Notes: generated by a model from the sequence alone, not told the origin. DNA of 64,000 nucleotides from Pseudomonadota bacterium (GCA_039030375.1 JBCCEH010000007.1:42607-106606); one strand, 5' to 3'; numbered from the stretch's first letter, positions 16,633-26,089 are shown. Translations and numbers: made by a program.

Positions 16633-16660
16633 AAAAAAAGGGCACCTAATCGGTGCCCTT
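16633..16660. terminator. bidirectional intrinsic terminator shared by the amidohydrolase gene and rtcB
   Basis: AAAAAAA-GGGCACC-taatc-GGTGCCC-TTGATGTTT. The hairpin overlaps the rtcB stop codon, and there is a T-run on both strands. Confidence 0.75.
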
Positions 16661-18055
16661 GATGTTTGCGACCGGATACAGACGATTCGCCACGCGAGCG
16701 ATACCTTCTGTTTCCAGTACGCGCAGGACCTCATCAAGATCCTTGTACACATGACCACATTCATCGAGCGGTGTACGACGCGTGTTACCGACGATACCTT
16801 CGATTTCAACGCCACCCAGCGTTCGCTTGATGTAGCGCATCTCATCGTCAATTTCGTCGTGGATGTCAGCCAGCTCGCGCTTTGCTTTACCACGCGCCAT
16901 TACGCGGCCGGATCCGTGATTCACTGAACAGCCGCTATGAAACGCGCCATCCAGTGGATACAAGATCGCCGCACCATCGAGCATCGAACCCGGCACCAAG
17001 CACGGATGACCGGTGTGTTCCCACTTGGTCCCAACCAGGTCAGGATGGCCAGCAGGGAACGCACGAGTCGCACCCTTACGATGAACGAAACCCTTCTTGG
17101 TGGTTCCATCCGGCAGCACCAGCGTTTCTTCCTGCACCAGGTTGTGCGAAATCTCGTAGAAGACTTCGCCGGTTACGTTGAAAACGTTCTCCAGTGCCGT
17201 TTGTACACCGCGCACAATCACGTGTCGGTTGGCAACCGCGTAGTTGGCCGCCGAGTTGTGATGTGCCCAGTACTCCTTGCCGAGCGGCTCATCGATGCGT
17301 AGCCACGATTCTTCGCGTCGGTTTTTAGCTAAGCCGCGAAGCTCCGCACCTGCATAGAAGTAGTGGTTCGCGGTTTGCCAGCCATAGCCGCGCGAGCCGC
17401 AATGGATCATCACCCACACCGAACCATCGTTAACATCGACCTGCATTTCCACAAAATGGTTGCCGCCGCCGACGGAACCGATCTGCGGACAGGCTTTGTC
17501 ACGCGCGCGCTTGATTCGCTCGGAATCCAACACCTGATCATCGACCTCGATGTACTGACGTTCGCACACGTCGGCATGCACACCAATCGCCTTCGCGCCG
17601 TAGTGGAAAATGTCATCGATTTTGGCCTCGGACATTCGCGGCATGTGCTTAGGTCGATGCGAACCAACACCCGTTGCAATACGCTGCTCAACATCGTTGA
17701 TCCACGCACGACGCTTATCCCAATCCGCAACGTCCGCTGCCGACAACCCCGGCACCTTCAGGTATACGACACCACAAGAGATGTCGTACCCCGAACCTGC
17801 CTGAATAATGACGTCTTCGGTAACCGCAACGCCGCCCACCGGGATCCCGTAGCCCAAATGGGTATCAGGCATCAGATATAGGCCAATAATTCCCGGATAC
17901 GACGCGGCATTCGCGGCCTGGCGCCACAGCGCCTCATCGGTTTGCGCGAAGAGCGTTTCCGACAGGTACGCATGGACCTCGGTATTCATCGCACCGATTT
18001 TCGGTAGCACGTAGTGTGCTTCTGAAACTTTTTGCACTTCATGTAGAAACGACAT
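16646..18055 (-). CDS. rtcB: RNA ligase RtcB (joins 3'-phosphate or 2',3'-cyclic-phosphate ends to 5'-OH ends), long 469-aa form
   Basis: RtcB metal/GMP-site motifs in order: MPDTHLGYG, GYDISCG, GGGNHFVE, HCGSRGYG, ISHN, VNHGSGR. AAGGAGGAT RBS 8 nt upstream. Confidence 0.95.
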   Translation of the reverse strand: MSFLHEVQKVSEAHYVLPKIGAMNTEVHAYLSETLFAQTDEALWRQAANAASYPGIIGLYLMPDTHLGYGIPVGGVAVTEDVIIQAGSGYDISCGVVYLKVPGLSAADVADWDKRRAWINDVEQRIATGVGSHRPKHMPRMSEAKIDDIFHYGAKAIGVHADVCERQYIEVDDQVLDSERIKRARDKACPQIGSVGGGNHFVEMQVDVNDGSVWVMIHCGSRGYGWQTANHYFYAGAELRGLAKNRREESWLRIDEPLGKEYWAHHNSAANYAVANRHVIVRGVQTALENVFNVTGEVFYEISHNLVQEETLVLPDGTTKKGFVHRKGATRAFPAGHPDLVGTKWEHTGHPCLVPGSMLDGAAILYPLDGAFHSGCSVNHGSGRVMARGKAKRELADIHDEIDDEMRYIKRTLGGVEIEGIVGNTRRTPLDECGHVYKDLDEVLRVLETEGIARVANRLYPVANIKGTD

Positions 18056-18072
18056 CGGTCGATCCTCCTTGA

Positions 18073-18645
18073 TTATTGTTTGTACAGCAACGCATTCCGC
18101 TTACCACCGTGATCCCTCAGGAATTCCATTTGGTCTCCCATGATGTGGCGGTTTTCCAAAATCAAACCTTCCGCACGGTTTGGGGCGTACGGCAGCGCCA
18201 GCAGTCGCATGTTGCATTCCTCGAGCAACCGGTCCGCCTTGCGGTGGTTGCAGATTCGGCAAGCGGTCACCACGTTTTCCCAGGTGTCTGCACCACCGCG
18301 CGATACCGGCACGACGTGGTCGCGCGTCAACTCGCAGTCGTACAGGTAGTCACCGCAGTACATGCACATGTGCGCATCGCGACGAAATAGGTTGCGGTTG
18401 GTCAGCGATGGCATGTCGTTCAATAAGCTGTACTCATGAACACCACCGTAAGCCGCGACAATCGTCGAAACGTACAGCACCGAACGTGCACCGGTCGCGC
18501 GCGAAATACCGCCGCGCAGGCACACGAACTCGATGCCTGCCTCCCAGGCAACCTGGTTTCGGCAGTACAGCAGCGTGCCCTCTTCCCTGGAGATCCAGGC
18601 CAAAGGGCGACCGGCAACATTGAGTTTTAGAATTTTTGCGTTCAT
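18073..18645 (-). CDS. HNH nuclease-domain protein with an uncharacterised N-terminal domain of about 100 aa
   Basis: The ORF-track start at 18741 runs into a tRNA-like element, so the internal ATG (MNAKILKL..) is used. HNH core CMYCG..LTRDHVVPVSRGG..WENVVTACRICNHRK. The stop is 17 nt before rtcB. Confidence 0.8.
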   Translation of the reverse strand: MNAKILKLNVAGRPLAWISREEGTLLYCRNQVAWEAGIEFVCLRGGISRATGARSVLYVSTIVAAYGGVHEYSLLNDMPSLTNRNLFRRDAHMCMYCGDYLYDCELTRDHVVPVSRGGADTWENVVTACRICNHRKADRLLEECNMRLLALPYAPNRAEGLILENRHIMGDQMEFLRDHGGKRNALLYKQ

Positions 18646-18692
18646 TGCTTTGTCTTCGTTATTCACTTTGACAATAGGGATTGCGTAGATGG

Positions 18693-18778
18693 TGGTGGAC
18701 ACGGCGGGTATCGAACCCGCATATCGAAGTAACCGGTGCATTACTACCGGCAGGTCGGTTGTTGGAAAACGCGCGCCA
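18693..18778 (-). ncRNA. tRNA-like element (canonical T arm + A-CCA, non-canonical body; 5' boundary uncertain)
   Basis: RNA 3' end ..GCGGG-TTCGATA-CCCGC-CGTGTCC-A-CCA. Hairpin CCGGT/ACCGG carries an 8-nt loop AGTAATGC. No D arm. The best 5' acceptor partner (TGGCGCG) has 1 mismatch and 2 G.U pairs. Confidence 0.35.
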
Positions 18779-18915
18779 GCGAGTAACCCTTACGCAGAGC
18801 AGTCGCCTGCATCCTCAACCATGCCATTCCGACCTCTTAGACAACGACCGGTGTTACCCGGACCACCTGACTAATCGTTTTGTGTGGCGGCATCCGTTTG
18901 CCAACGTGCCCTTAT

Positions 18916-18991
18916 TGGTACGCAGCCCGAGATTCGAACTCGGAAACAAGTCGGTTTGAGCGACTTAGGTATAACGTTCCCTCAGCTGCGT
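18916..18991 (-). tRNA. tRNA with leucine anticodon CAA on a class-I body (5-nt variable loop), 76 nt, CCA encoded
   Basis: RNA: ACGCAGC-TG-AGGG-AACGTTAT-ACCT-A-AGTCG-CTCAAAC-CGACT-TGTTT-CCGAG-TTCGAAT-CTCGG-GCTGCGT-A-CCA. Acceptor pairs 7/7. D loop lacks GG. Confidence 0.7.
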
Positions 18992-18996
18992 AAAAT

Positions 18997-19075
18997 TGGT
19001 AGCCGCCCTCGGAGTCGAACCGAGAAACACCTGTTTCTAAAACAGGTAGGTATGCCTAATTCCCATCAGACGGCC
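18997..19075 (-). tRNA. tRNA with leucine anticodon UAG on a class-I body, 79 nt, CCA encoded
   Basis: RNA: GGCCGTC..CCTGT-TTTAGAA-ACAGG-TGTTT-CTCGG-TTCGACT-CCGAG-GGCGGCT-A-CCA. Acceptor has two G.U pairs. D arm is irregular but has GG. Confidence 0.65.
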
Positions 19076-19083
19076 ATTGAAGT

Positions 19084-19160
19084 TGGAACCCTCGGCAGGA
19101 CTCGAACCTGCAACACCCGAGGTAGAAGCTCGGTGCTCTAATCCATTGAGCTACGAAGGT
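19084..19160 (-). tRNA. tRNA-Arg (anticodon UCU), CCA encoded
   Basis: Acceptor ACCTTCG/CGAGGGT (one G.U), D arm GCTC-AATGGATTA-GAGC, anticodon loop CTTCTAC, T arm GCAGG-TTCGAGT-CCTGC. Confidence 0.85.
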
Positions 19161-19161
19161 C

Positions 19162-19256
19162 TGGTGGCCCAGGCGGGAATCGAACCCAACCTGCCTGGGA
19201 TTTGCTGAGCACTAAGAGGGCGATTGCAGATTGATCTTTAGTGTCCCTGCCAGGCC
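19162..19256 (-). ncRNA. family-A tRNA-like RNA (CACTAAAG core), 95 nt, lacks D and anticodon arms
   Basis: RNA: GGCCTGG-CAGGGACACTAAAGATC-AATCTGC-(31 nt)-GCAGGTT-GGG-TTCGATT-CCC-GCCTGGGCC-A-CCA. Confidence 0.6.
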
Positions 19257-19333
19257 GTGAGTCTGAAGTCACCGAGCCAAATTGCCGTTGCTCGCAACGT
19301 AGTTCTGACGATGTAGTCCGAAGTCGATTGAGT

Positions 19334-19483
19334 TGGACATGCCGCCCGGACTTGAACCCAGTTTGCCTGCTCCGCGAAATTGTTCGCTCCGGACTGATGC
19401 AAACTGACCTTTAGTGATCAGACGGAAAACAACGACTGCGCAATTGATGCTCGTCGACTATGGCTTAGCTCGGCCACGGCATG
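19334..19483 (-). ncRNA. family-A tRNA-like RNA, 150 nt
   Basis: RNA: CATGCCG-TG-GCCGAGC..CTGATCACTAAAGGTC-AGTTTGC-(32 nt)-GCAAACT-GGG-TTCAAGT-CCGGG-CGGCATG-T-CCA. Acceptor pairs 7/7. Confidence 0.6.
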
Positions 19484-19490
19484 ATTCGGT

Positions 19491-19564
19491 TGGCAGGCCA
19501 GGAGCGATTCGAACGCCCATTTGCGGGTTTGGAAGCCGCAGTCCTACCTTTAGACGACTGGCCT
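19491..19564 (-). tRNA. tRNA-Trp (anticodon CCA), CCA encoded
   Basis: Acceptor AGGCCAG/CTGGCCT 7/7, discriminator G, anticodon loop TTCCAAA (C31.C39 mismatch), D loop AAAGGTA, T loop TTCGAAT. Confidence 0.8.
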
Positions 19565-19604
19565 AATTCCAATCTGTCGATACTCATCGACCCATACTTG
19601 TATT

Positions 19605-19680
19605 TGGCACGGCCGGCTGGACTTGAACCAGCGCCCTCGACTTTCGCAAAGTCGCGCTCTGTCCACTGAGCTACGGCCGT
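19605..19680 (-). tRNA. tRNA-Arg (anticodon GCG), CCA encoded
   Basis: Acceptor ACGGCCG/CGGCCGT 7/7, D arm GCTC-AGTGGACA-GAGC, anticodon arm CGACT-TTGCGAA-AGTCG, T arm GCTGG-TTCAAGT-CCAGC. Confidence 0.85.
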
Positions 19681-19692
19681 ATAGAATAAGTT

Positions 19693-19717
19693 GGGAGGGT
19701 GCGTTGCACACCCTCCC
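19693..19717 (-). terminator. hairpin downstream of the SPFH gene (possible attenuating terminator or processing site)
   Basis: GGGAGGGTG-tgcaacg-CACCCTCCC on the minus strand, followed by only a weak T-rich tract (AACTTATTCTAT). Confidence 0.45.
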
Positions 19718-19726
19718 GGTGCTGAA

Positions 19727-21016
19727 TTAAGACTTGATGTTTACCAGGCCATTCAGCAAAGCGTCGAGACCACCCACGACGGATAGATCGCCGACGTTTT
19801 CGGTGATCTTCTCGAGAGTCTCCAGCTCTTTGAGACGTAGCGCTACGTTGTTGCTTTCCATCACTTTCGCGGTGTTCAGCAACGAGCGCGTTGCATTGGT
19901 CTCTTCGCGACGGCGAATCACGTTCGCTTGCGCCGCTTTTTCGGCTTCAACCACCTTGCCCAGCAGGTCTTTCATATCGCCGGGAAGGATGATGTCTTTG
20001 ACACCCACGCTAAGCACGCTGAGGCCGATTTCAGCAAAACGCTCACCAAGATGCTCAGCGATGTCGCGGTCGATCGCTGTCTTGTCCTCGAGCAGCGCAT
20101 CCAGTTTGCGAGTACCCACCGCAGCGCGAAGACCAAATTGGATCTCTTTGTACAGCTGATCCAGCGGGTCTTTGACGGCGCGAACGGCCTTGGCCGCATC
20201 GACGTACTGGTAAGACGCGGTGACGTTGATACGCAGTGCCACTTTGTCCTTGGTCAGGATTTCCTGACCTTGAACTTCCAGCGCTTTGACACGCAGGTCC
20301 ACCAGCTCTACGCCAACGGCGTGCGCAACATTCCAAAACGCGTGCAGGCCCGCTGTTAATGATTTGGTGAACTCACCGTCCACGTACAGCAGACCGACAT
20401 GACCATCTGGCACGATGCGCGCGCAAACCGCTTTGTCGACCACCGCAAGCACTTTCGCGTCGCGGCCATTCACAAGGCGCTTGGTCAGACGTGAATCCAG
20501 CGCAATACCCTCGTTGAGGTCGTAGCGCTCAACACGAACATTGACCACGCCCTTCCAGTAGAGCTTGCGCTCTGCCGGAGCAAGCACGGCCGCCGCACGT
20601 CCATTGAGATAGACCAATGCGACTTCATCGGCATTGGTTTCAACGATATGAAACTGGTGCTCGATCACTGCACGTTCGGCTTCGATCAGATAGTCGGCCA
20701 GACGGTGTTCAAACGCGGCGAACGAAATATCAAAACGCTCAACCGCATACTGGCCGCGCACACCGAAGTAACGATAAGTTCCCGGTGCCAGGAACTCGAT
20801 GAAGTCTCCGTCTTTAAACAGGAGACCGCGCTCGTGCTTGCGCACGACGAATTTCGTATAGAACCACATTAGGCGTTCTCCTTCTTCGTTGTTGTTACCG
20901 TCCAATGACGGTGGTTGATTAGGACGTAAAACGCGTACCGGCTGATCCGCAGGGCGGCTTAGCGTCTGCACGCGAATGCGTCGTTCTACTTCTGCTAGTC
21001 GACTGAGACCAGCCAC
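19727..21016 (-). CDS. SPFH/band-7 (slipin-like) domain protein
   Basis: C-terminal half has band-7-type sequence (..ILTKDKVALRINVTASYQ..VKDIILPGDMKDLL..AEKAAQANVIRRREE..). Two candidate starts: GTG 21016 (13-nt SD) or ATG 20869 (AAGGAG SD). Confidence 0.85.
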   Translation of the reverse strand: MAGLSRLAEVERRIRVQTLSRPADQPVRVLRPNQPPSLDGNNNEEGERLMWFYTKFVVRKHERGLLFKDGDFIEFLAPGTYRYFGVRGQYAVERFDISFAAFEHRLADYLIEAERAVIEHQFHIVETNADEVALVYLNGRAAAVLAPAERKLYWKGVVNVRVERYDLNEGIALDSRLTKRLVNGRDAKVLAVVDKAVCARIVPDGHVGLLYVDGEFTKSLTAGLHAFWNVAHAVGVELVDLRVKALEVQGQEILTKDKVALRINVTASYQYVDAAKAVRAVKDPLDQLYKEIQFGLRAAVGTRKLDALLEDKTAIDRDIAEHLGERFAEIGLSVLSVGVKDIILPGDMKDLLGKVVEAEKAAQANVIRRREETNATRSLLNTAKVMESNNVALRLKELETLEKITENVGDLSVVGGLDALLNGLVNIKS

Positions 21017-21019
21017 TTG

Positions 21020-21032
21020 GGATCACCTCCTT
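21020..21032 (-). promoter_or_regulatory. over-long Shine-Dalgarno (AAGGAGGUGAUCC), 13-nt complement of the 16S rRNA 3' tail
   Basis: The plus strand reads GGATCACCTCCTT, which is the 16S 3'-terminal sequence. The AGGAGG core lies 9 nt upstream of GTG 21016. Confidence 0.6.
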
Positions 21033-21336
21033 TGTTGTCGATAGTTAGGCGGCCCAGACCATCGCTGGCCGGAGACTTAGAATATGTGTGCCCGTCATCA
21101 CAAAACTGCTGGAGATCGGCGGCGCCGGTGAATCGGGCACATCGTGCACGCGTCGTCGACTGTTGCCCACGATCAAGATTGCTATCGCAGGTAACGAGCG
21201 GACGAGGCGTGGGCGGTATGCTGGATTGACACGACGGATCACTAATCGGCAGCAACCGTGTTGCTCCAACGTAGGACGTCCTTGCGGATCGTCAATCGTC
21301 TTTGCCGACAACGGACACGGGTGGGGCGATATCCTC

Positions 21337-21399
21337 GCCCGGGAGCGGATTCGAACCGCAAGGCGCTAGCCTTACCCTTAAGACCGAGTGAAGGTCGGT
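21337..21399 (-). pseudogene. 3'-partial tRNA-like element (anticodon-type hairpin + long variable hairpin + T arm, no 5' acceptor/D arm, no CCA)
   Basis: RNA: ACCGA-CCTTCAC-TCGGT-CTTA-AGGG-TAAG-GCTAGCGCCT-TGCGG-TTCGAAT-CCGCT-CCCGGGC. The next element starts immediately 5' of it. Confidence 0.35.
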
Positions 21400-21471
21400 G
21401 TGGAAATGCAAGATTCGAACTTGCGACACTCAGATTCTGGTCTGATGCTCTAACCACTGAGCTAAATTCCC
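21397..21471 (-). pseudogene. degenerate tRNA (intact D and T arms, 6-nt anticodon loop, 2 acceptor mismatches, no CCA)
   Basis: RNA: GGGAATT-TA-GCTC-AGTGGTTA-GAGC-A-TCAGA-CCAGAA-TCTGA-GTGTC-GCAAG-TTCGAAT-CTTGC-ATTTCCA. Confidence 0.4.
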
Positions 21472-21472
21472 G

Positions 21473-21581
21473 TGGTGGTTGAGTGCTAACGGTACGCTCG
21501 GTACACACCGTGCGATCGGAGCGTAAGTGCGCCAGACGGGATAGAAACCCGAACCGCTGAACGCCGTGCGCATGCCCAACC
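21473..21581 (-). ncRNA. 109-nt RNA closed by an acceptor stem and ending A-CCA (not a cloverleaf)
   Basis: GGTTGGG pairs with CTCAACC (one G.U), then A-CCA. Internal helices TGCGC/GCGCA (enclosing CGGG-TTTCTAT-CCCG) and TACGCTC/GAGCGTA. No T arm next to the 3' acceptor strand. Confidence 0.5.
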
Positions 21582-21582
21582 C

Positions 21583-21659
21583 TGGTAGTCCGAGACGGAT
21601 TCGAACCGACGACCTCCGCTTTGTAAGAGCGGCGCTCTAACCCACTGAGCTATCGGACA
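21583..21659 (-). tRNA. tRNA-Val (anticodon UAC), CCA encoded
   Basis: Anticodon arm CCGCT-CTTACAA-AGCGG, D arm GCTC-AGTGGGTTA-GAGC, T loop TTCGAAT. U1.U72 and U50.U64 mismatches. Confidence 0.8.
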
Positions 21660-21662
21660 ACT

Positions 21663-21733
21663 TGGTCGAGAGGGCGGGATTCGAACCCGCGTTAACAGGG
21701 TTATGAGCCCTGCCTGAGACCACCTCCCTCTCA
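21663..21733 (-). tRNA. tRNA with anticodon CAU (Met or Ile2 type) and a reduced D arm, 71 nt, CCA encoded
   Basis: RNA: TGAGAGG-GAG-GTGGT-CTC-AGG-CAGGG-CTCATAA-CCCTG-TTAAC-GCGGG-TTCGAAT-CCCGC-CCTCTCG-A-CCA. Confidence 0.5.
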
Positions 21734-21734
21734 T

Positions 21735-21810
21735 TGGTGCGGGCAGCAGAATTCGAATCTACAACCTCGACGATGGCGGCGTCGTGCTCTACCGTTGGAG
21801 CTATACCCGC
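21735..21810 (-). tRNA. tRNA-Gly (anticodon GCC), CCA encoded, C at position 33
   Basis: Acceptor GCGGGTA/TGCCCGC (U6.G67), D arm GCTC-CAACGGTA-GAGC, anticodon arm CGACG-CCGCCAT-CGTCG, T arm GTAGA-TTCGAAT-TCTGC. Confidence 0.8.
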
Positions 21811-21817
21811 ATAAACT

Positions 21818-21891
21818 TGGTCCGTCCTGAGAGAATCGAACTCCCGTCAACAGGTTAAAAGCCTGCTGCTCCACCACTAAGCCAAGGACGG
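21818..21891 (-). tRNA. tRNA-Lys (anticodon UUU), CCA encoded
   Basis: Acceptor CCGTCCT/AGGACGG 7/7, anticodon loop CTTTTAA, D loop AGTGGTG, T loop TTCGATT. Confidence 0.85.
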
Positions 21892-21893
21892 AT

Positions 21894-21972
21894 TGGCCTG
21901 CCCGGCAGGACTTGAACCTGCACATCGCCTGGTTCGAAGCCAGGTGCCTTCATCCAGTTTGGCCACGGGCAG
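21894..21972 (-). tRNA. tRNA-Arg (anticodon UCG), CCA encoded
   Basis: RNA: CTGCCCG-TG-GCCA-AACTGGATGA-AGGC-A-CCTGG-CTTCGAA-CCAGG-CGATGT-GCAGG-TTCAAGT-CCTGC-CGGGCAG-G-CCA. Confidence 0.75.
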
Positions 21973-21975
21973 TTT

Positions 21976-22046
21976 TGGCGGAGAAGCCCAATTCGCCCGC
22001 GGACGCTAGGGCTTCTCCATAGATTGGTGCGAATTGATCTTTAGTG
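21976..22046 (-). ncRNA. family-A RNA, T-arm-deleted variant
   Basis: RNA: CACTAAAGATC-AATTCGC-ACCAATCTAT(GGAGAAGCCC)TAGCGTCCGCGG-GCGAATT-GGGCTTCTCC-G-CCA. The bracketed loop segment pairs with the 3' terminal strand. 5' extent uncertain (up to about 22092). Confidence 0.5.
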
Positions 22047-22092
22047 CTTGTGTTTCCAAGTGCCGGCATCCGCCATCTGCGGCGGGAGGATT

Positions 22093-22168
22093 TGGGGTGA
22101 ACGACCGGAATCGAACCCGCATCGTCCAGAGTCACATTCTGGAGCTTTACCGTTAAGCTACGTTCACC
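22093..22168 (-). tRNA. tRNA-His (anticodon GUG) with encoded G-1 and C73, CCA encoded
   Basis: Acceptor GTGAACG/CGTTCAC 7/7 plus an extra 5' G opposite C73. Anticodon loop ATGTGAC, D arm GCTT-AACGGTA-AAGC. Confidence 0.85.
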
Positions 22169-22174
22169 ATGATT

Positions 22175-22344
22175 TGGCGGAGACTGAGAGGATCAAAATC
22201 CCACATCCTTTCGGACTTCACCGGGTTCACAAAACGCATACGTTTTGGACGCACGAGTGAAAGCGAGTGCGGGGCACCGCCCCGAGAATCGCCCCAAGGC
22301 GATTCGAGTCAAACCGGATAAGCACGCCGGCCTTGCGAGTCTCC
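22175..22344 (-). ncRNA. 170-nt highly structured RNA closed by a tRNA-like acceptor stem and ending G-CCA
   Basis: GGAGACT pairs with AGTCTCC 7/7. Internal helices CAAGGC/GCCTTG, CGGGGC-GGT-GCCCCG, CGCAC/GTGCG, CAAAACG-TATG-CGTTTTG, TCC-GAAA-GGA. No CACTAAAG core and no canonical T loop. Confidence 0.5.
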
Positions 22345-22351
22345 GTACGAT

Positions 22352-22425
22352 TGGTGCGGGCATTCAGAATCGAACTGAATCATCTTGGGTGGAAGCCAAG
22401 CACTCTGCCAATGAGCTATACCCGC
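22352..22425 (-). tRNA. tRNA-Gly (anticodon UCC), CCA encoded
   Basis: Same acceptor as the GCC isoacceptor (GCGGGTA/TGCCCGC). Anticodon arm CTTGG-CTTCCAC-CCAAG, T arm TTCAG-TTCGATT-CTGAA. Confidence 0.85.
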
Positions 22426-22431
22426 GGAAAC

Positions 22432-22606
22432 TGGTCTGGAAGGCTGGATTTGAACCCCAATCTGCCTGCTTTGCATCGAGCACTGAGTTGGTCCCCGCAG
22501 ATTGACCTTTAGCCAGATCGTTCGATCGTGCGCATTGAAGGTTGAATCGTTTCTCGACGCACAACAACGATTACTTGCCTCCCTGACCAGGCTGAGCTAC
22601 TTCCAG
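22432..22606 (-). ncRNA. family-A tRNA-like RNA, 175 nt, with a tRNA-type 5' acceptor and D arm
   Basis: RNA: CTGGAAG-TA-GCTC-AGCCTGGTCAGG-GAGG-C..AATCGTT-(14 nt)-AACGATT..GGCTAAAGGTC-AATCTGC-(31 nt)-GCAGATT-GGGG-TTCAAAT-CCAGC-CTTCCAG-A-CCA. Confidence 0.6.
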
Positions 22607-22610
22607 AAAG

Positions 22611-22688
22611 TGGTAGACCGGGGCCGAATCGAACGGCCGACCTCGCGAATATCAGTCGCGTGCTCTCGACCAACTGAGCTACCGGTCT
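22611..22688 (-). tRNA. tRNA-Ile (anticodon GAU), CCA encoded
   Basis: All four stems are perfect: AGACCGG/CCGGTCT, GCTC/GAGC, CGCGA-CTGATAT-TCGCG, GGCCG-TTCGATT-CGGCC. Confidence 0.9.
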
Positions 22689-22697
22689 ACAGAGTCA

Positions 22698-22922
22698 TTA
22701 CGCCAGAGGTACAAAAGATCCCTCGCCCATCGCTCGCTTGATATAGCGCATGAAGAAAATAGCTTTATCTTCGAGTTCGAGAGTGGCATCGCCGATATCT
22801 TCCAGCGGAACCGGAAACTGAAATGCGCCCTGCAATGGCACCGATACGCCGTAGTAGGCAATGCCCTGGCGGTACCGAACGAATCGAACGGTGTTGTCTT
22901 TCACAATGTCTTTAATGTTCAT
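22698..22922 (-). CDS. hypothetical 74-aa protein embedded in the tRNA array
   Basis: ATG 22922 is preceded by GGGAGAA, 21 nt downstream of the CCA of the 22943 RNA. The upstream part of the track ORF overlaps that RNA and was trimmed. No motif recognised. Confidence 0.4.
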   Translation of the reverse strand: MNIKDIVKDNTVRFVRYRQGIAYYGVSVPLQGAFQFPVPLEDIGDATLELEDKAIFFMRYIKRAMGEGSFVPLA

Positions 22923-22942
22923 AGTTTCTCCCGAATTAAAGT

Positions 22943-23137
22943 TGGTAATCCCGACAGGATTTGAACCCAATCCGCCCTCCGCGTTTATGAGCAAGAAGAC
23001 GGTTGGTGCGGATTGATCTTTAGGATGCTGTGTGTGAGCACTCCGGTCATGCGAGCACTGAAGATCAATCTGCAGTTAGTTAAGCCTGACAATTAAGACC
23101 GCGGGCAGATTGGGCTTAACCATTCGCCCACGGGATC
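22943..23137 (-). ncRNA. family-A tRNA-like RNA, 195 nt, with a class-II-type D arm
   Basis: RNA: GATCCCG-TG-GGCG-AATGGTTA-A-GCC-C-AATCTGC-(31)-GCAGATT-GATCTTCAG-(33)-CTAAAGATC-AATCCGC-(32)-GCGGATT-GGG-TTCAAAT-CCTGT-CGGGATT-A-CCA. Confidence 0.6.
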
Positions 23138-23152
23138 ATTTGAAAAATGAGT

Positions 23153-23289
23153 GTTTGGTGCGGATTGATCTTCAGTGCGTTCCGTGGAAGCACTCCGATG
23201 ATGCGAGCACTAACGATCAATCTGCACTTAGCCAAGCCTGACAATTAAGACCGCGGGCAGATTGGGCTTAACCATTCGCCCACGGGATC
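23153..23289 (-). ncRNA. 5'-partial tandem duplicate of the 22943-23137 RNA (lacks last loop, T arm and acceptor 3' strand)
   Basis: 23230-23289 is nearly identical to 23078-23137. The copy ends after ..CACTGAAGATC-AATCCGC-ACCAA. Confidence 0.55.
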
Positions 23290-23296
23290 GGAAAAG

Positions 23297-23372
23297 TGGC
23301 GGTGCGACCCGGACTTGAACCGAGATCTCCTTGATCGACAATCAAGCGCTCGACCGATTGAGCTACCGCACC
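23297..23372 (-). tRNA. tRNA-Asp (anticodon GUC), CCA encoded
   Basis: Discriminator G, anticodon arm CTTGA-TTGTCGA-TCAAG, D arm GCTC-AATCGGTC-GAGC, T arm CTCGG-TTCAAGT-CCGGG. Confidence 0.85.
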
Positions 23373-23376
23373 GAGT

Positions 23377-23403
23377 AGAAAAAAGCGCTGAGACTAAGCG
23401 CTT
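23377..23403 (-). terminator. intrinsic terminator inside the array
   Basis: Minus strand: AAGCGCT-TAGTCTC-AGCGCTT followed by TTTTTC, ending 5 nt upstream of tRNA-Asp. Confidence 0.7.
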
Positions 23404-23728
23404 CGCGGCCATCCTTTTGCGCGAGTACCGGACCGCCCTGCCGGGCGCCGTTGCGCGCGTGTCCACGACGACCTAACCGAAGCCAGCGCCGGCGTATACA
23501 GCCATGACTGCCTTTTTGAGAGTGTGGCGATTCACTCGTCGTACGAACCTATTCAGCAACTCGCGTACCGTGGACCTTGCGGGCCCTAAATGGGAGCTCC
23601 CCAACCGTGCGGCTTACTGCAAAGAACACGCTTGCTTGCGGCTCACGCGTTCGCCGAATTACCCGAGGGCTCCGGCCTTAAGCCATTTTCAGTTCGTACC
23701 GAGACACGTCTTTGCGTTGATTGTCGGT
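23404..23728 (-). ncRNA. ORF-free 325-nt GC-rich segment ending at its own terminator (candidate structured RNA of unknown class)
   Basis: No ORF with coding character on either strand. Local helices include GAGTG-AATCGCCA-CACTC and CTGGC-TTCG-GTTAG. Confidence 0.35.
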
Positions 23729-23799
23729 GTGTAATGCCGGATTCGAACCGGCAACCGATCGCTTAGGAGGCGATTGCTCTACCTCTGAGCTTAAAACAC
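23729..23799 (-). tRNA. tRNA-Arg (anticodon CCU), weak acceptor stem, no encoded CCA
   Basis: Anticodon arm ATCGC-CTCCTAA-GCGAT, D arm GCTC-AGAGGTA-GAGC, T arm GCCGG-TTCGAAT-CCGGC all perfect. Acceptor pairs only 5/7 (two U.U). Confidence 0.5.
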
Positions 23800-24274
23800 A
23801 AATACCCATTTCGACGTGCGTGCCTCAGTTGCTTCGTTGCTTGCTTCGCAACGAAATACAACACGCCGAATGTCGTTCACCTGCCGGTTACTGAACCGGA
23901 ACCAAGGACGCTGACTGCGCACCAGCTCCCCAAATTCCTGCACGATCGCACTTGCTGGCAAAGCTCGTACTGATTCGCACTATCTGTTACCCGTCACGAT
24001 CTACGGTTTGGTATCTCGGGTTGCGCCACCACGCGTTCTTTCACGGACACGTATTTACCCGGCAAAGCCAGTACGTTAAGCCCGCTACTTCCGTGCACCG
24101 CTGGACTCGCTATCACCGGCTAAACCGATGACTATTGGGGGCCAGACTTGCCTGGATCAACCAATTCGAAAACTGGCGAAGCACCATGGGTAGTACTCCT
24201 TTCCCGCCGTTACCGACGGTTAGCAGCGCCAGGCCGCTATAAAGAACCTCGACCGAAATCGATGGCCCTGAATG
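23800..24274 (-). ncRNA. ORF-free 475-nt segment between two tRNAs (candidate large structured RNA)
   Basis: No credible ORF. Many short GC helices. Strand is assumed from the surrounding genes. Confidence 0.3.
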
Positions 24275-24350
24275 TGGTGGAGGACCGCGGATTCAAACCG
24301 CGCACCTTCCGCTTGCAAAACGGATGCTCTATCGACTGAGCTAGTCCCCC
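24275..24350 (-). tRNA. tRNA-Ala (anticodon UGC) with the G3.U70 identity pair, CCA encoded
   Basis: Acceptor GGGGGAC/GTCCTCC gives G3.U70. D arm GCTC-AGTCGATA-GAGC, anticodon loop TTTGCAA, T arm CGCGG-TTTGAAT-CCGCG. Confidence 0.9.
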
Positions 24351-24470
24351 GTTGTTCTTGAATTCGTAATCGATAATTTGCGAAAAATAAATACGCGCCT
24401 ACCGTGATGCGGGTATGCATCTATGGCTTAGAAACTTGATTTATTAGTTAGCCACTTGAATGACTCTTGT

Positions 24471-24650
24471 CACTAAAGCTAATCGCGCACCGGCCGTGAT
24501 ACGAAATGATTTCTAACTTCATGCACGCACCTTCTGCATGGAACACTAAAGATAAATACGCGCCTACCGTGATACGAAATGATTTCTAACTTCATGCACG
24601 CACCTTTTGCATGGAACACTAAAGATAAATACGAGCCTACCGTGATGCGC
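24471..24650. repeat. 73-bp tandem repeat, 2.5 copies (24471, 24544, 24617)
   Basis: Each unit starts CACTAAAG(A/C)T(A)AAT on the plus strand, and the last 50 bp of units 1 and 2 are nearly identical. A 25-bp direct repeat ATAAATACG(C/A)GCCTACCGTGATGCG occurs at 24387-24411 and 24625-24649. Confidence 0.85.
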
Positions 24651-24673
24651 TCTAGAGAGTACGCCTGCGTATT

Positions 24674-24748
24674 TGGCTGGCACGGCTGGACTCGAACCCG
24701 CATCTTTCCGCTTAACAGGCGGACGCTCTACCATTGAGCTACATGCCA
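24674..24748 (-). tRNA. tRNA-Asn (anticodon GUU), CCA encoded
   Basis: Discriminator G, anticodon arm TCCGC-CTGTTAA-GCGGA, D arm GCTC-AATGGTA-GAGC. T stem has one G.A mismatch. Confidence 0.85.
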
Positions 24749-24853
24749 GGAATACTCTCGGATACGCCAAGATGTCGGCGCAATAACCGGATTGCCACTC
24801 AAGCGAATTCCGCGATTACCAGGAATTGCGCGAAAGACTCTTATAGGCGGAGT

Positions 24854-24932
24854 TGGTGGATCGGGATGGAGTCGAACCATCACCGCGTCAGTCTTCAGCC
24901 GACCGCTCTACCCATTAGAGTAGGACCGATCC
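24854..24932 (-). tRNA. tRNA-Phe (anticodon GAA), 79 nt, irregular D/anticodon junction, CCA encoded
   Basis: RNA: GGATCGG-TC-CTAC-TCTAATGG-GTAG-AGCG-GTCGG-CTGAAGA-CTGAC-GCGGT-GATGG-TTCGACT-CCATC-CCGATCC-A-CCA. Confidence 0.7.
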
Positions 24933-25054
24933 TAGGGGTGACGCTGCCGGCTGCACTGTCGGAAATCCGGCTTATCCATCCAAGGGGCCCGATCACGTCG
25001 CCGTAGAAACGCCTCGGGCCAAGAGTCATTCCATTGCCGGCACGCCAGAAAAAC

Positions 25055-25140
25055 TGGTGGAGAAGGAAGGATTCGAACCTCCAAAGCTATTAAAGCGCCT
25101 GGTTTACAGCCAGGGTATCTCGCCACGTGAATGCTTCTCC
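25055..25140 (-). tRNA. tRNA-Tyr (anticodon GUA), class II (15-nt variable arm), CCA encoded
   Basis: Acceptor GGAGAAG/CTTCTCC 7/7, anticodon arm CCTGG-CTGTAAA-CCAGG, variable arm with GCT-TTAAT-AGC, T loop TTCGAAT. D arm is poorly paired. Confidence 0.75.
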
Positions 25141-25215
25141 GGTGCTGAAGATAGGCGTCGAACCTATAACCTGCCGCTTACAAGGCGGCTGCTCTGCCAA
25201 TTGAGCTACATCAGC
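25141..25215 (-). tRNA. tRNA-Thr (anticodon UGU); its 3' ..A-CC abuts G1 of tRNA-Tyr with no spacer
   Basis: Anticodon arm GCCGC-CTTGTAA-GCGGC, D arm GCTC-AATTGGCA-GAGC, T arm ATAGG-TTCGACG-CCTAT. One U.U in the acceptor. Confidence 0.8.
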
Positions 25216-25335
25216 GAATACCGTTGGGGCAGGCGTATACGCACAGCCGGGTCTGAGTGCTGCGGCCGTTCCGAGGAATGACCCTGCCCCAACGTCTACT
25301 ACACAATCCATATTGTTAAAGAGCGTTCCGGGGCA

Positions 25336-25369
25336 TAAAAAAACCCCGGTTAGTTAGAACCAACCGGGG
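25336..25369 (-). terminator. strong intrinsic terminator upstream of the tRNA array (ends the XRE/small-ORF transcript)
   Basis: Minus strand: CCCCGGTT-ggttctaact-AACCGGGG-TTTTTTTA. Confidence 0.8.
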
Positions 25370-25434
25370 TTTACTCTTTGAGTGTCCCTGGAAGGTTCGA
25401 TTTGCGAGCCTTCCAGGAAAAATTCTGGAAAGGC

Positions 25435-25632
25435 TTACGTCATCAAATCCCCACGATTTGTGGCGAGTGATTCAAAACGGTTAATGACCGCGTGTGCGGA
25501 TATCGGGCACAGGCGGACGCCACCGTCTCTCGATGGCATGGCATAGCTATGCCGGTGCTCGCGAGCGGCGTTGGTTAAACCGAATTGATGGCTGTTTGTT
25601 TTCATAGGGGGCAGGAGTATACGCATCGACAT
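25435..25632 (-). CDS. hypothetical small protein (doubtful)
   Basis: 65-aa ORF downstream of the XRE gene. No SD, no motif. Confidence 0.2.
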   Translation of the reverse strand: MSMRILLPPMKTNSHQFGLTNAAREHRHSYAMPSRDGGVRLCPISAHAVINRFESLATNRGDLMT

Positions 25633-25678
25633 CTATCTGTCAACACCGAAAGTGAACAAATGTTCCGTTAAAGTGAAC

Positions 25679-26089
25679 TTACTTCACAGAATACGGTTTG
25701 CGGGTTTGTTTCGGTTGATTCTCACGAACGCTGCGGAGCCAATTTTGGATCGTCGATTCTTGCCGCGCGGTGAGGTCCAACGCCCCCACCATGAGTTCAA
25801 TGGTGTCGATGACGCGACCACGAATCGCTTTGCCCACTTCGTTACCCGGCACTGCCGCACCCTCACCGAACAGGATCCAACTCGGCGACACATTGGTGAT
25901 TTCTGCGATCGCCTGTATAAGTTTCAGGTTGGGATTCTTGGCATCGATTGACTCGAGGCGATACAGCCCGGTCTTAGACAGATCGATTCCTCTTTCCCGT
26001 AGTGCGTGACGCAACTCCACGGGAGACAACTGCGCCTGCTCTCGGGCGCGCTTGATGCGATCTGCAACGGTGGTTTTAGGTTTCTTCAT
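25679..26089 (-). CDS. XRE (Cro/CI-type) helix-turn-helix transcriptional regulator
   Basis: 136 aa. N-terminal HTH ..VADRIKRAREQAQLSPVELRHALRERGIDLSKTGLYRLES.. Confidence 0.8.
   Translation of the reverse strand: MKKPKTTVADRIKRAREQAQLSPVELRHALRERGIDLSKTGLYRLESIDAKNPNLKLIQAIAEITNVSPSWILFGEGAAVPGNEVGKAIRGRVIDTIELMVGALDLTARQESTIQNWLRSVRENQPKQTRKPYSVK

Follow-up and report, generated by a model that had tools for sequence, protein, structure and literature searches.

A tRNA array island with HNH and RtcB genes in which a small module replaces the anticodon arms of tRNA genes

Introduction

Why should about 20 tRNA genes lie on one strand together with an HNH nuclease and an RNA ligase, and what are the longer, mostly CCA-ended RNAs interspersed among them? 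Arrays with related content have been described. In cyanobacterial L-arrays an HNH gene is a conserved neighbour, rtcB and dpsA lie nearby and all are co-induced by translational stress (PMC8421152), and in Anabaena TrcR is the common repressor of the trn operon, rtcB, an HNH gene and a slipin gene (PMC10272220). Mycobacterial arrays include GOLLD RNA and HNH (PMC6582537), and GOLLD has been found close to tRNA islands and holds tRNAs in its linker (PMC12286853). Like the cyanobacterial L-arrays, the present island joins HNH, RtcB and an SPFH protein (slipin in Anabaena) to a tRNA array and, like the mycobacterial arrays, it has GOLLD and HNH; an earlier note on this DNA was therefore mistaken in stating that no such system had been described.

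Islands of this kind are known as long "L-type" tRNA arrays or tRNA array units, and what is new here is a ~73-nt module, R1, that replaces anticodon arms in its tRNA genes. We think it probable that the locus is a ~9.5-kb horizontally transferred L-type array island of a Woeseiaceae-like gammaproteobacterium, combining stress-induced spare tRNAs, RtcB repair and insertion-derived chimeras.

Organisation of the island

The island occupies 16633-26089 (minus strand) of the window, the whole 64,000-nucleotide stretch of DNA that was analysed. From the regulator it runs through promoter, leader ORF with terminator and about 20 tRNA genes to GOLLD RNA, a 74-aa ORF, an SPFH protein, an HNH nuclease and RtcB.

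25679-26089, minus strand: XRE/DicA-like HTH regulator, the island's first gene (weak Pfam HTH_3 and NCBIfam DicA subfamily matches)
25616-25643, minus strand: sigma-70-type promoter, TTGACA-16-TATACT (11/12 consensus positions)
25435-25605, minus strand: 56-codon leader ORF, starting a few bases past the -10 box
25386-25418, minus strand: conserved leader hairpin (CUGGAAGG...CCUUCCAG), with alternative pairing to 25424-25433
25341-25372, minus strand: intrinsic terminator between leader ORF and first tRNA (conserved hairpin), candidate attenuator
18916-25215, minus strand: tRNA array (ARAGORN, Rfam); first half Thr, Tyr, Phe-like, Asn, Ala, Arg-CCU (in GOLLD), Asp, Ile, Gly-UCC, His, Arg-UCG; second half Lys, Gly-GCC, CAU, Val, odd-loop tRNA, Arg-GCG, Trp, Arg-UCU, Leu-UAG, Leu-CAA
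23373-24274, minus strand: GOLLD RNA (Rfam-matched 3' domain 23385-23871)
22698-22922, minus strand: orf74, conserved 74-aa protein within the array
19727-21016, minus strand: SPFH/Band_7 protein (Pfam E 7e-26)
18073-18654, minus strand: HNH endonuclease, ~190 aa (Pfam HNH, E 2e-15, and HNH_5)
16646-18055, minus strand: RtcB RNA ligase, archaeal/eukaryal type, 469 aa (Pfam E 4e-90)
16638-16660, minus strand: terminator-like hairpin ending the island

All tRNAs and the four real ORFs between the two minus-strand terminator-like hairpins (25372-25341 and 16660-16638) share that strand, which bears out the earlier description of a single-strand tRNA island ending in HNH-rtcB. The XRE gene, previously placed at the edge, is present but belongs inside the island, as does the leader region; both lie beyond the array-start boundary drawn before.

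The same gene order is found in five to six sister islands whose chromosomal contexts differ, and the tRNA genes are syntenic with those of L181, L160, L002, L180, L182 and L183. The L181 island holds 29 tRNAs covering all 20 amino acids. Recurrence of rtcB-HNH homologs with arrays in other genomes had been set beforehand as a test, and the association does recur, so it was not refuted: the close relatives L002, L180, L181 and L183 have it, Verrucomicrobia (L024, L063, L080) show the pairing as well, and a same-strand array lies upstream in 13/80 HNH-homolog loci. The proposal that the tRNA operon is accessory and horizontally mobile, with an RNA ligase physically coupled to it, is supported. 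As to its suggested mobile or phage origin, horizontal mobility stands, but there is no phage, integrase or transposase gene within about 15 kb of the island, and the link to phages is indirect, through GOLLD and the jumbo-phage relatives of orf74.

Regulator, promoter and leader

In L180, L182 and L183 a regulator homolog (67-73% identity) lies immediately upstream of the array; IS elements interrupt the L181 gene. The promoter hexamers and their spacing are both kept in L004 and L180-L183. A counterpart of the leader ORF, 55-59 codons long and with a conserved C-terminus (...SGEPMT-stop), occupies the same location in six islands, and the hairpin at its 3' end shows covariation. The leader hairpin has two compensatory pairs across six islands, the leader fold has z = -5.35 against shuffles, and the terminator is conserved, with one-sided changes that preserve pairing. 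At 25335-25459 Rfam scores a His_leader-like match of 43 bits, short of the gathering score of 49. A search of the leader for an explicit antiterminator pairing overlapping the terminator found none.

We propose that this single promoter drives the entire operon and is probably repressed by the adjoining XRE/DicA-like protein, with the leader ORF and intrinsic terminator coming after it. The transcript would comprise ~20 supernumerary tRNAs, GOLLD RNA, orf74, SPFH, HNH and an active-looking RtcB. Induction and attenuation are suggested by analogy and by conserved structure; as the island regulator is of XRE type whereas TrcR is of RHH type, the regulatory analogy with Anabaena is functional, not homologous.

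GOLLD RNA and protein genes

Two ORF-free blocks had been reported, one of which (23373-24274) is GOLLD RNA. The match to RF02032 (119 bits, E 1e-31) lies below the gathering score of 150 and aligns over the full length, 1-416, including the pseudoknot and conserved motifs; the orthologs in L002 (157 bits) and L182 (152 bits) exceed that score, and the region is 74% identical to L002 over 1 kb. The GOLLD linker harbours tRNA-Arg(CCU), 23726-23799.

The reported SPFH, HNH and 469-aa RtcB genes are confirmed by Pfam, and the 74-aa ORF lies where listed above. Homologs of orf74 (n=273, all without a name) include one in every sister island and a relative in jumbo phage Tunturi_5 that lies within a tRNA array; its AF2 model (pLDDT 90) has no significant fold match in the PDB. 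The SPFH protein shows 64-91% identity in L002, L003, L160, L180, L181 and L183, and its gene has a conserved 5' leader (21017-21399) and an SD and GTG start kept in L002. The N-terminal ~80 aa of the HNH protein are uncharacterised; its closest solved relatives match only the HNH core, where alone the AF2 model is confident. For RtcB the top PDB match is P. horikoshii RtcB, and the residues aligned to the ligase motifs GYDINCG, GNHF, HTGSRG, AHN and CHGAGR are all retained, suggesting an active enzyme.

The tRNA complement

ARAGORN called 18 tRNAs, and Rfam added Tyr-GUA (25058-25140, 34 bits) and a CAU tRNA without a D-arm (21666-21729, 39.8 bits). Most of the 20 cloverleaves claimed before were recovered, but the Phe-GAA candidate (24858-24932) is only a sub-threshold match (24.7 bits, as tRNA-Sec) and a tRNA with a 6-nt anticodon loop (21400-21472, 51 bits) had been overlooked, giving about 17 solid tRNAs and 4 weak or odd ones. 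The reported identity marks (His G-1/C73, Ala G3.U70, G73 in Asp, Asn and Trp), read directly in the sequence, are all correct. In one orthologous tRNA the anticodon loop is hypervariable.

The earlier note took the anticodon set to reflect the targets of colicin E5 (Tyr/His/Asn/Asp), colicin D (Arg) and PrrC (Lys-UUU), making the island a tailored replacement-plus-repair kit against anticodon nucleases. All named target tRNAs are present, RtcB is intact, phage tRNAs counter tRNA-cleaving defences (PMC11464382, PMC11555353, PMC10264068), and the hypervariable loop would fit nuclease evasion. We nevertheless judge this distinctly improbable, since the ancestral set, as seen in L181, covers every amino acid, so that target selection is unneeded to explain the anticodon content. 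Among the specificities reported as missing, Gln is absent, but for Glu, Pro, Ser and Cys the window has genes that insertions have disrupted, which is why intact ones are lacking. With ~20 of ~29 genes left, the 9 named targets are expected by chance, and a PADLOC scan of six island proteins gave no defence-model match past generic HNH or HTH domains.

Long RNAs derived from tRNA genes

The earlier note listed at least eight non-tRNA RNAs ending in NCCA. Elements b to h do have an acceptor-like stem and an NCCA end; a has no 3' end, i does not end in CCA, and the "non-tRNA" label was wrong for most of them.

23147-23290, minus strand: element a, tandem copy of b cut short: tRNA-Glu 5' part and modules without a 3' end
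22941-23143, minus strand: element b, tRNA-Glu(UUC) with antisense and sense R1 modules in place of the anticodon arm
22431-22609, minus strand: element c, tRNA-Pro(UGG), positions ~22-52 replaced by ~130 nt including an R1 module
22171-22351, minus strand: element h, tRNA-Ser(UGA) interrupted directly behind the anticodon by 83 nt, T-arm decayed
21975-22092, minus strand: element d, tRNA-Ser(GCU) remnant
21474-21582, minus strand: element g, ~105-nt structured RNA closed by GGGUUGG/UCAACC plus ACCA
19336-19484, minus strand: element e, tRNA-Cys(GCA), U73 kept, R1 module for the anticodon arm
19163-19334, minus strand: element f, R1-bearing tRNA derivative at the Ile(UAU) position
18695-18915, minus strand: element i, tRNA-like scaffold (acceptor, D-like arm, perfect T-arm) with a ~140-nt insert that lacks R1

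Comparison with sister islands makes the insertion polymorphism directly visible, and comparison with L181 tRNAs supports a tRNA origin for a, b, c, e and h. Over 28 nt at either end (5' and 3'), b matches the tRNA-Glu of L181; a and b form a tandem repeat (period 152, 88% matches), with R1 matches in b at 22957-23029 (-, 74.9 bits) and 23052-23123 (+, 39.8 bits) and in a at 23204-23275 (+) and 23112-23181 (-). The L160 ortholog of c is an intact tRNA-Pro, identical in the 5' part and one base different in the 3' part (R1 match 22446-22518, 57 bits). In d (R1 match 21980-22050, 51.7 bits) the module directly joins the acceptor 3' strand and GCCA, the 5' acceptor strand lies within the module loop, and position and 3' end agree with L181 Ser-GCU. 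The 3' 29 nt of e match the L181 tRNA-Cys, and its R1 match lies at 19348-19420 (65 bits). For f (R1 match 19176-19247, 59 bits), position and a weak 3' match to L181 Ile-UAU tentatively suggest an Ile(UAU) origin. The insertion in h is evident against intact Ser-UGA genes of L181, L182 and L183, and L180 Ser-UGA bears an unrelated insertion at the same site. The 5' part of i also occurs in L180, and i is missing from L181. Element g, nearly invariant in L002 and L160 and more conserved than its flanks (no covariation being available), is not recognisably a tRNA derivative.

In six of the long RNAs, then, R1 has taken the place of a tRNA gene's anticodon arm, tentatively so for f; judged by sequence, the long RNAs are mostly tRNA-derived and not a separate designed class. 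They go back to the ancestral set of 29 tRNAs, namely to Glu, Pro, two Ser, Cys and probably Ile-UAU; about a quarter of that set (seven or more of ~29) is disrupted in the window. Such a proportion could equally mean a decaying copy rather than one in use.

The R1 module

The module reads CACUAAAGAUCAAUCCGC-(~32 nt)-GCGGAUUG-T-loop. It is the main insertion type, with a unit of ~58 nt that abuts the T-loop singly or in head-to-head pairs. Across 38 copies the helix is 99.7% paired with three covarying pairs, a score reached by 0/500 shuffles; single-stranded CACUAAAGAU is invariant and loop length is fixed. R1 targets differ between arrays (other tRNAs are struck in L180), the module is absent from L002, L003, L181, L182 and L183, and copies lie next to housekeeping tRNA genes in 35 metagenome contigs. 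Rfam, viral contigs and, by sequence, the literature searched yielded no R1 match.

The position of some insertions raises the question of introns, removed by an endonuclease and with exons joined by the co-encoded RtcB. In favour, this ligase is of the archaeal/eukaryal splicing type, the insertions of h and its L180 counterpart lie exactly after the anticodon, and further insertions are located in T-loops. Against it, elements a-f have no anticodon arm, so splicing could restore no functional tRNA, and h has decayed exons. A splicing endonuclease was not found, HNH chemistry yields ends unsuitable for RtcB, and the Rfam scan shows no ribozyme or group I intron. We consider introns extremely improbable.

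A second alternative is that the window copy is a functionally irrelevant, decaying remnant, its long RNAs pseudogenes and R1 selfish MITE/REP-like or att-remnant (CIME-like) DNA without an RNA role. The disrupted genes fit this, as do the decayed h T-arm, the 6-nt anticodon loop, and the IS insertions (XRE and RtcB genes) and one GOLLD deletion in sister islands. R1 units are also found in either orientation and in inverted pairs, and direct repeats of 21-26 nt, corresponding to the tRNA 3' part, border them in a way that resembles an integration footprint. Here, however, the regulator, SPFH, HNH and orf74 genes, the promoter, the leader and the RtcB motif residues all remain intact, and the L160 ortholog of b carries a compensatory acceptor-stem change, a two-sided change maintaining the stem after insertion. 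No transposase, integrase or other enzyme able to move R1 was found near any copy. Moreover, the helix has U.G in three cells against one C.A mismatch, and five helix variants stand side by side in one array, which fits nucleic-acid pairing and not the two half-sites of a protein. Decay is a real possibility, if an unlikely one.

Conversely, the chimeras might be functional tRNA-scaffolded ncRNAs with a conserved effector domain for the anticodon arm, for instance decoys of acceptor-end-reading enzymes or toxins, or guide/platform RNAs. The retained acceptor stem, T-loop and CCA, the compensatory change in b, and the invariant CACUAAAGAU, covarying stem and fixed-length loop would agree with this, and chromosomal copies carry a near-identical (23-26/26) copy of the adjoining tRNA's acceptor/T part. 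The design resembles engineered tRNA scaffolds, which are used for stable RNA expression. Against it, the ~32-nt loop has no structure and no complementarity to nearby sequence, chromosomal copies often have no clean 5' acceptor strand or have the CCA paired, antisense-oriented units exist, and many arrays do well in the absence of R1. We hold an effector role to be rather unlikely.

Proposed workings

In our preferred reading, a horizontally transferred L-type array, the island may stay silent until translation is disturbed, whereupon read-through of the leader terminator would flood the cell with a spare tRNA set and RtcB would reseal tRNAs or rRNA cleaved by ribotoxins, by analogy with the Anabaena trn operon. 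R1 and other small non-coding insertions would have replaced or interrupted the anticodon arms of ancestral tRNA genes and scaffold i. As acceptor stem, T-loop and usually CCA survive, processing should still release the chimeras from the transcript as it does tRNAs, and they may persist as tRNA-scaffolded RNAs.

Organisation of the island

The tRNA island exists as the earlier note described it, with terminators at both ends, minus-strand tRNAs and open reading frames for an HNH nuclease and RtcB, all of which were confirmed. Between 18916 and 25215 ARAGORN places 18 tRNA genes, every one of them minus-strand. Two more reach at least the gathering score in Rfam, namely a class-II Tyr-GUA (25058-25140) and a CAU tRNA that lacks the D-arm (21666-21729), and the Phe-GAA listed in that note is found below threshold only. 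Counted within the 64-kb window, 20-21 tRNA or tRNA-like genes are packed into 6.3 kb of this one strand, and the tRNA identity marks that had been listed are correct as read in the sequence. Two terminator-like hairpins (25372-25341 and 16660-16638) enclose the region, which includes the following protein genes.

Protein genes of the island
16646-18055, minus strand, RtcB, real ORF
18073-18654, minus strand, HNH nuclease, real ORF
19727-21016, minus strand, SPFH/Band_7 protein, real ORF
22698-22922, minus strand, 74-aa ORF (orf74), real ORF

The genes flanking the island are those of ordinary metabolism and transport, and comparison of the array with known phages gave single-tRNA matches only, with no extended similarity.

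The array 'Leu' tRNAs (window 18916-19075; L181:13449-13772 in a sister island; and those of the related loci L051, L060, L063 and L069) measure 73-79 nt across phyla and are thus without the long variable arm of class II. The tRNA at 21400-21472 (minus strand) has a body that is 88% conserved among its orthologs (L002:3110-3182, L160:1963-2036, L180:11619-11690, L181:11263-11336 and L183:11027-11102) and a hypervariable anticodon loop, which reads CAU, UGU or UCU or has just 6 nt, and which carries C instead of U33 wherever it is of the normal 7 nt; CCA is encoded in the L183 copy only. Element g (window 21474-21582; L002:3001-3108; L160:~2037-2147) is a structured RNA of ~105 nt closed by an acceptor-like stem; its conservation exceeds that of the tRNAs next to it, and no Rfam family corresponds to it. 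The 5' leader of the SPFH gene (21017-21399), conserved in L002 and L160, contains the remnant of a tRNA 3' half, with its T-arm at ~21341-21363, and a strong SD precedes the GTG start.

Sister islands and horizontal spread

We compared 80 loci encoding relatives of the window HNH protein, and 13 of these have a same-strand tRNA array of 3 to 20 genes directly upstream, the HNH-linked arrays coming from Gammaproteobacteria, Verrucomicrobia and Acidobacteria. RtcB follows HNH in four loci (L002, L024, L063 and L080) and SPFH recurs in L002, L003, L020 and L070, and so the linkage of HNH and rtcB with tRNA arrays that the earlier note looked for in other genomes does occur. Four further islands (L180-L183), found via homologs of orf74, share the order XRE regulator, array, orf74, SPFH, HNH, RtcB, except that L182 is without SPFH and RtcB. 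The sister islands hold 19-29 tRNAs, and the flanking genes differ between the window, L180, L181, L182 and L183, which places the islands in different chromosomal contexts. The window island thus shows the patchy distribution and horizontal transfer that characterise L-type arrays. To see in it a mobile operon of spare tRNAs coupled to a repair ligase, broadly as had been proposed, is reasonable; no integrase or transposase was found within about 15 kb of the island.

In L181 (ERZ25072999 contig, 3.8 Mb) the tRNAs are intact, but two DDE transposase genes interrupt the XRE gene, an IS21 interrupts RtcB and the 3' domain of the GOLLD RNA is deleted. The chromosomal flanks of two sister islands contain c-di-GMP-I riboswitches (L180:3571-3658 and L182:14746-14819), which are unrelated to the island.

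The long CCA-ended RNAs

The long structured RNAs ending in NCCA had been taken for non-tRNA species. Set against L181 and the syntenic metagenome array L160, however, elements a-e and h are disrupted tRNA genes, and f is probably another.

Counterparts in L181 of the long RNAs of the window array
Elements a and b: Glu-UUC
Element c: Pro-UGG
Element d: Ser-GCU
Element e: Cys-GCA
Element f: probably Ile-UAU
Element h: Ser-UGA
Element i: nothing, just a short spacer between Leu-CAG and HNH

The clearest case is element c, whose counterpart in L160 is a tRNA-Pro that is still intact: in the window copy the acceptor and D-loop of the 5' part are unchanged, the 3' T-loop, acceptor and CCA are kept with one base different, and positions ~22-52 of the tRNA are replaced by about 130 nt. 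Element h (22171-22351) is a tRNA-Ser(UGA) with an 83-nt insertion immediately after the anticodon, and the tRNA-Ser(UGA) of L180 (L180:10539-10769) carries an unrelated insertion at exactly the same site, which suggests a site-specific insertion hot spot. A two-sided change that preserves the acceptor stem separates the b chimera of the window from its L160 ortholog, and this hints that pairing is still selected, perhaps only because the operon needs RNase P processing.

GC-rich hairpin-forming insertions that are not related to R1, the module considered below, lie inside T-loops or T-loop-like sequences in L148, L154, L159 (after GGTTCGA) and L180:10690-10745, and may form a second insertion family. 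As identities for the long RNAs, tmRNA, permuted tmRNA and YrlA (Y RNA-like) were rejected, with Rfam matches below threshold at 13-29 bits against gathering scores of 47-69; ARAGORN found no tmRNA.

That the window array is without Glu, Pro, Ser and Cys is therefore due to insertions into these genes, and not to design; a Gln tRNA is absent altogether. The argument that the anticodons had been selected as colicin targets thereby loses its basis. With 29 tRNAs, the undisturbed array of L181 serves all 20 amino acids, and the inference of specific targets fails.

The R1 module

Common to elements a-f is a module of ~73 nt, R1, consisting of CACUAAAGRUCARUYYGC, 30-33 variable nt and GCRRAYUG joined to the T-loop. 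Scanning metagenomes with a search pattern from which the 3' strand was left out gave 38 loci, and the complementary strand is present in 35 of them. The helix of 8-9 bp is 99.7% paired across the 38 copies and shows two-sided changes at three positions (18 cells); its covariation score was reached by 0 of 500 shuffles, and slid registers collapse. Five variants of the helix are found together in the window array, and the cells that depart from Watson-Crick pairing comprise three U.G and one C.A, which speaks for pairing between nucleic-acid strands (RNA or single-stranded DNA) and against two protein half-sites. The ~32-nt loop shows no structured inner hairpin, its stability being no better than that of shuffles (mean z -0.11, p 0.46), and a pseudoknot between the loop and the 3' tail (the downstream tRNA part), as in element d, did not rise above shuffles in the 11 copies scored. 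As possible guides to nearby DNA, the loops match only themselves or tandem copies among the sequences compared. R1 has no Rfam family match, the literature searched by sequence and keywords gave no earlier report, and in viral contigs the 17-mer core gave 60 hits, all of them chance matches to coding sequence, and a longer pattern none.

R1 units in the window and related islands, counted with a covariance model
Window: 8 units (6 sense, 2 antisense), every one inside the array
L002 and L003: none
L160: 2 units
L180: 6 units, in or beside other tRNA genes (Pro, Met, Gln, a Leu)
L181, L182 and L183: none

Related arrays thus have R1 in different tRNAs or not at all, which points to several independent insertions, and the combination of multiple copies with insertion polymorphism is that of a MITE/REP-like mobile repeat. 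We rank first the possibility that R1 is a mobile non-coding element colonising tRNA genes, which accounts for the facts at the level of DNA. In metagenomes most copies follow an intact housekeeping tRNA (Asn, Phe, Met, His, Leu, Lys and others) at a distance of 60-130 nt, copies are frequently in tandem, and in 18 of 30 testable cases R1 is followed by a copy of the T-loop-to-CCA segment of the neighbouring tRNA, with at least 23 of 26 positions identical. The complete unit at L146, one of the metagenome loci, runs tRNA-His, antisense R1, ~125 nt, sense R1 and a 21-nt repeat of the 3' part of the tRNA; the repeats flanking R1 copies are 21-26 nt of tRNA 3' sequence. No cognate transposase (DDE, RAYT/Y1 HUH) was found near any R1 copy, short target-site duplications were not seen, and the chromosomal copies have no recurrent protein neighbour, the adjacent genes being housekeeping ones. 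Like REP/REPIN sequences, MITEs and CIME-type att-flanked remnants, R1 is short, non-coding, multi-copy, hairpin-forming, polymorphic between close relatives and present singly or as inverted doublets, and in some copies direct repeats of the target lie on its flanks. However, it differs from these in being specific to tRNA genes (at the T-loop junction) and in having a stem that encloses an unstructured loop of fixed length (~32 nt), and its target repeats, at 21-26 nt, greatly exceed the target-site duplications of transposons, with no RAYT, transposase or integrase found alongside.

Between tRNA-Asn and tRNA-Ala of the window, which are adjacent in L160 and L181, lies a 73-nt tandem repeat (24494-24646; 2.1 copies, 97% matches) that carries the R1 box CACTAAAGAT in antisense.

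Second in our ranking is that the R1 chimeras are working tRNA-scaffolded RNAs. In engineered tRNA scaffolds, a foreign RNA is placed in the anticodon arm while the acceptor and T-arm are kept, and the product is processed and stabilised like a tRNA. The chimeras resemble such scaffolds, and the tRNA embedded in GOLLD, in their layout, and would be a natural case, possibly processed and stabilised in a similar way. In its most specific form, which we consider unlikely, R1 would be an unrecognised class of tRNA-gene-specific element that docks at the T-loop and replaces the anticodon arm, giving tRNA-scaffolded RNAs with an invariant CACUAAAGAU strand and a variable loop of fixed length (~32 nt) on a covarying stem. 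The RNA, matured by the tRNA machinery, would then be the active species, either as guide or platform for a recombinase or nuclease, possibly the HNH of the array, or as an acceptor-end decoy, and the element would also spread to housekeeping tRNA loci. It is very unlikely, and ranked third, that R1 or the other insertions are spliceable tRNA introns, as the anticodon arm is gone from a-f, Rfam detects no intron or ribozyme family and there is no splicing-type endonuclease among the island genes.

Probable GOLLD RNA

The first of the two blocks that had been called ORF-free is treated here as a probable GOLLD RNA. A permissive Rfam scan places GOLLD (RF02032) at 23385-23871 with 119.3 bits against a gathering score of 150 (E 1e-31), the alignment covering the whole model, including the pseudoknot and conserved motifs, and syntenic copies exceed the gathering score in L002, a Woeseiaceae MAG (157 bits), and in L182 (152 bits). 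The match contains tRNA-Arg(CCU) (23726-23799) in its linker, in agreement with the known association of GOLLD with tRNA islands and with tRNAs in the linker (PMC12286853). The 14-mer nanocage of GOLLD is known only for the env-38 representative (PMC12286853). At 23382-23404 the end of GOLLD forms a hairpin and T-run that score as an intrinsic terminator just before tRNA-Asp, and partial termination inside the operon is possible.

Proteins of the island

The island RtcB most resembles the archaeal/eukaryal splicing ligase (P. horikoshii RtcB, E 5e-53), has a Pfam match of 303 bits and keeps the residues aligned to the P. horikoshii motifs GYDINCG, GNHF, HTGSRG, AHN and CHGAGR, whilst its scores do not reach the cut-offs that NCBIfam sets for E. 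coli-type RtcB and PrfH-linked RtcB2. With the fold, the metal-binding residues and the guanylylated His all recognisable in its sequence, it is predicted to be a 3'-P/2',3'-cP RNA ligase. The HNH core is like that of IscB, Cas9 and McrA at domain level only, and the N-terminal ~80 residues of the protein gave an AF2 model too poor for a fold search (pLDDT below 50). Defence-system models (PADLOC) matched none of the six island proteins scanned, with only generic HNH and HTH domain hits. There are 273 homologs of orf74, all unnamed, and its confident structural model reached no significant PDB match. Relatives of orf74 are present in jumbo phages, and in Tunturiibacter phage Tunturi_5 one lies inside a nine-tRNA array, adjoining a CCA-adding enzyme; a search of plasmids gave no hits.

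Control region

A near-consensus promoter lies at 25643-25616, and a leader ORF of 56 codons begins almost at the start of the transcript, followed by alternative hairpins and a strong terminator, all before the first tRNA. The promoter, leader ORF, position of its stop, hairpins and terminator are kept in six islands, including the distant L004, with compensatory changes in two leader hairpins, and directly upstream is a conserved XRE/DicA-like gene. This conserved structure suggests that the array would be controlled by XRE repression together with translation-coupled attenuation. An antiterminator pairing that overlaps or competes directly with the leader terminator was looked for and not found.

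Comparison with known systems

The window locus has the layout of an L-type tRNA array or tRNA array unit, a dense one-strand array with an HNH gene beside it and rtcB near. In cyanobacteria the HNH gene is conserved beside the L-array, with rtcB and dpsA nearby, and translation inhibitors induce all of them together (PMC8421152). The regulon of the Anabaena repressor TrcR comprises the trn operon, rtcB, an HNH gene and a slipin gene (PMC10272220), and mycobacterial arrays contain GOLLD and HNH (PMC6582537). The parts are thus already linked in these arrays, so that the claim that no described system combines them was wrong, and the window locus is a new variant.

Specifically, the Anabaena PCC 7120 trn operon and cyanobacterial L-arrays (Santamaria-Gomez et al. 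2021, PMC8421152; PMC10272220) are likewise long one-strand operons of 20-40 supernumerary tRNAs spread by HGT, with an adjoining HNH, an rtcB that is nearby or co-regulated, a slipin/SPFH gene belonging to the regulon, a dedicated repressor and some array pseudogenes. In contrast, the host here is a gammaproteobacterium, HNH and RtcB close the operon as its 3'-terminal genes, an XRE/DicA-like protein takes the place of the RHH regulator, a leader ORF and terminator are conserved, GOLLD, orf74 and SPFH are embedded in the array and R1 has colonised it. Mycobacterium tRNA array units (PMC6582537, PMC5966550; Morgado 2020, cited in PMC12286853) share a cluster of ~30 tRNA genes, an HNH gene, HGT and an internal GOLLD that itself holds a tRNA or pseudo-tRNA. 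They belong to another phylum, however, RtcB and SPFH are not reported there, and the window GOLLD is below the gathering score whereas its orthologs are above it. Phage tRNA clusters, which act in counter-defence (PMC11464382, PMC11555353, PMC10264068), also have anticodon-loop variation and spare tRNAs that can replace cleaved host tRNAs, some contain a homing endonuclease gene (SegB, PMC13096335), and those of jumbo phages include orf74 relatives. Unlike these, the island lies in a chromosome, has a repressor of its own and is not close to any phage genes.

Implications

The finding is real. The system is of a kind already described, and it places a gammaproteobacterial family (Woeseiaceae-type, from marine sediment) among the L-type tRNA arrays. 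Worth pursuing are the R1 module, the leader-ORF/terminator region with its XRE repressor, the orf74 family common to jumbo phages and the GOLLD-RtcB operon. Whether selfish repeat or working RNA, R1 explains puzzling 'long tRNA-like' genes as the mark of a cleanly defined, covarying element that targets tRNA genes, and it warns that specificities missing from arrays can be insertion casualties. The repressor, leader ORF and terminator make a concrete control region, which could explain how such arrays sense translational stress. One operon here unites tRNAs, GOLLD, SPFH, HNH and RtcB, which the literature links only piecemeal, and for GOLLD, whose structure is solved, a compact operon joining it with RtcB and spare tRNAs offers a promising setting in which to seek a function.
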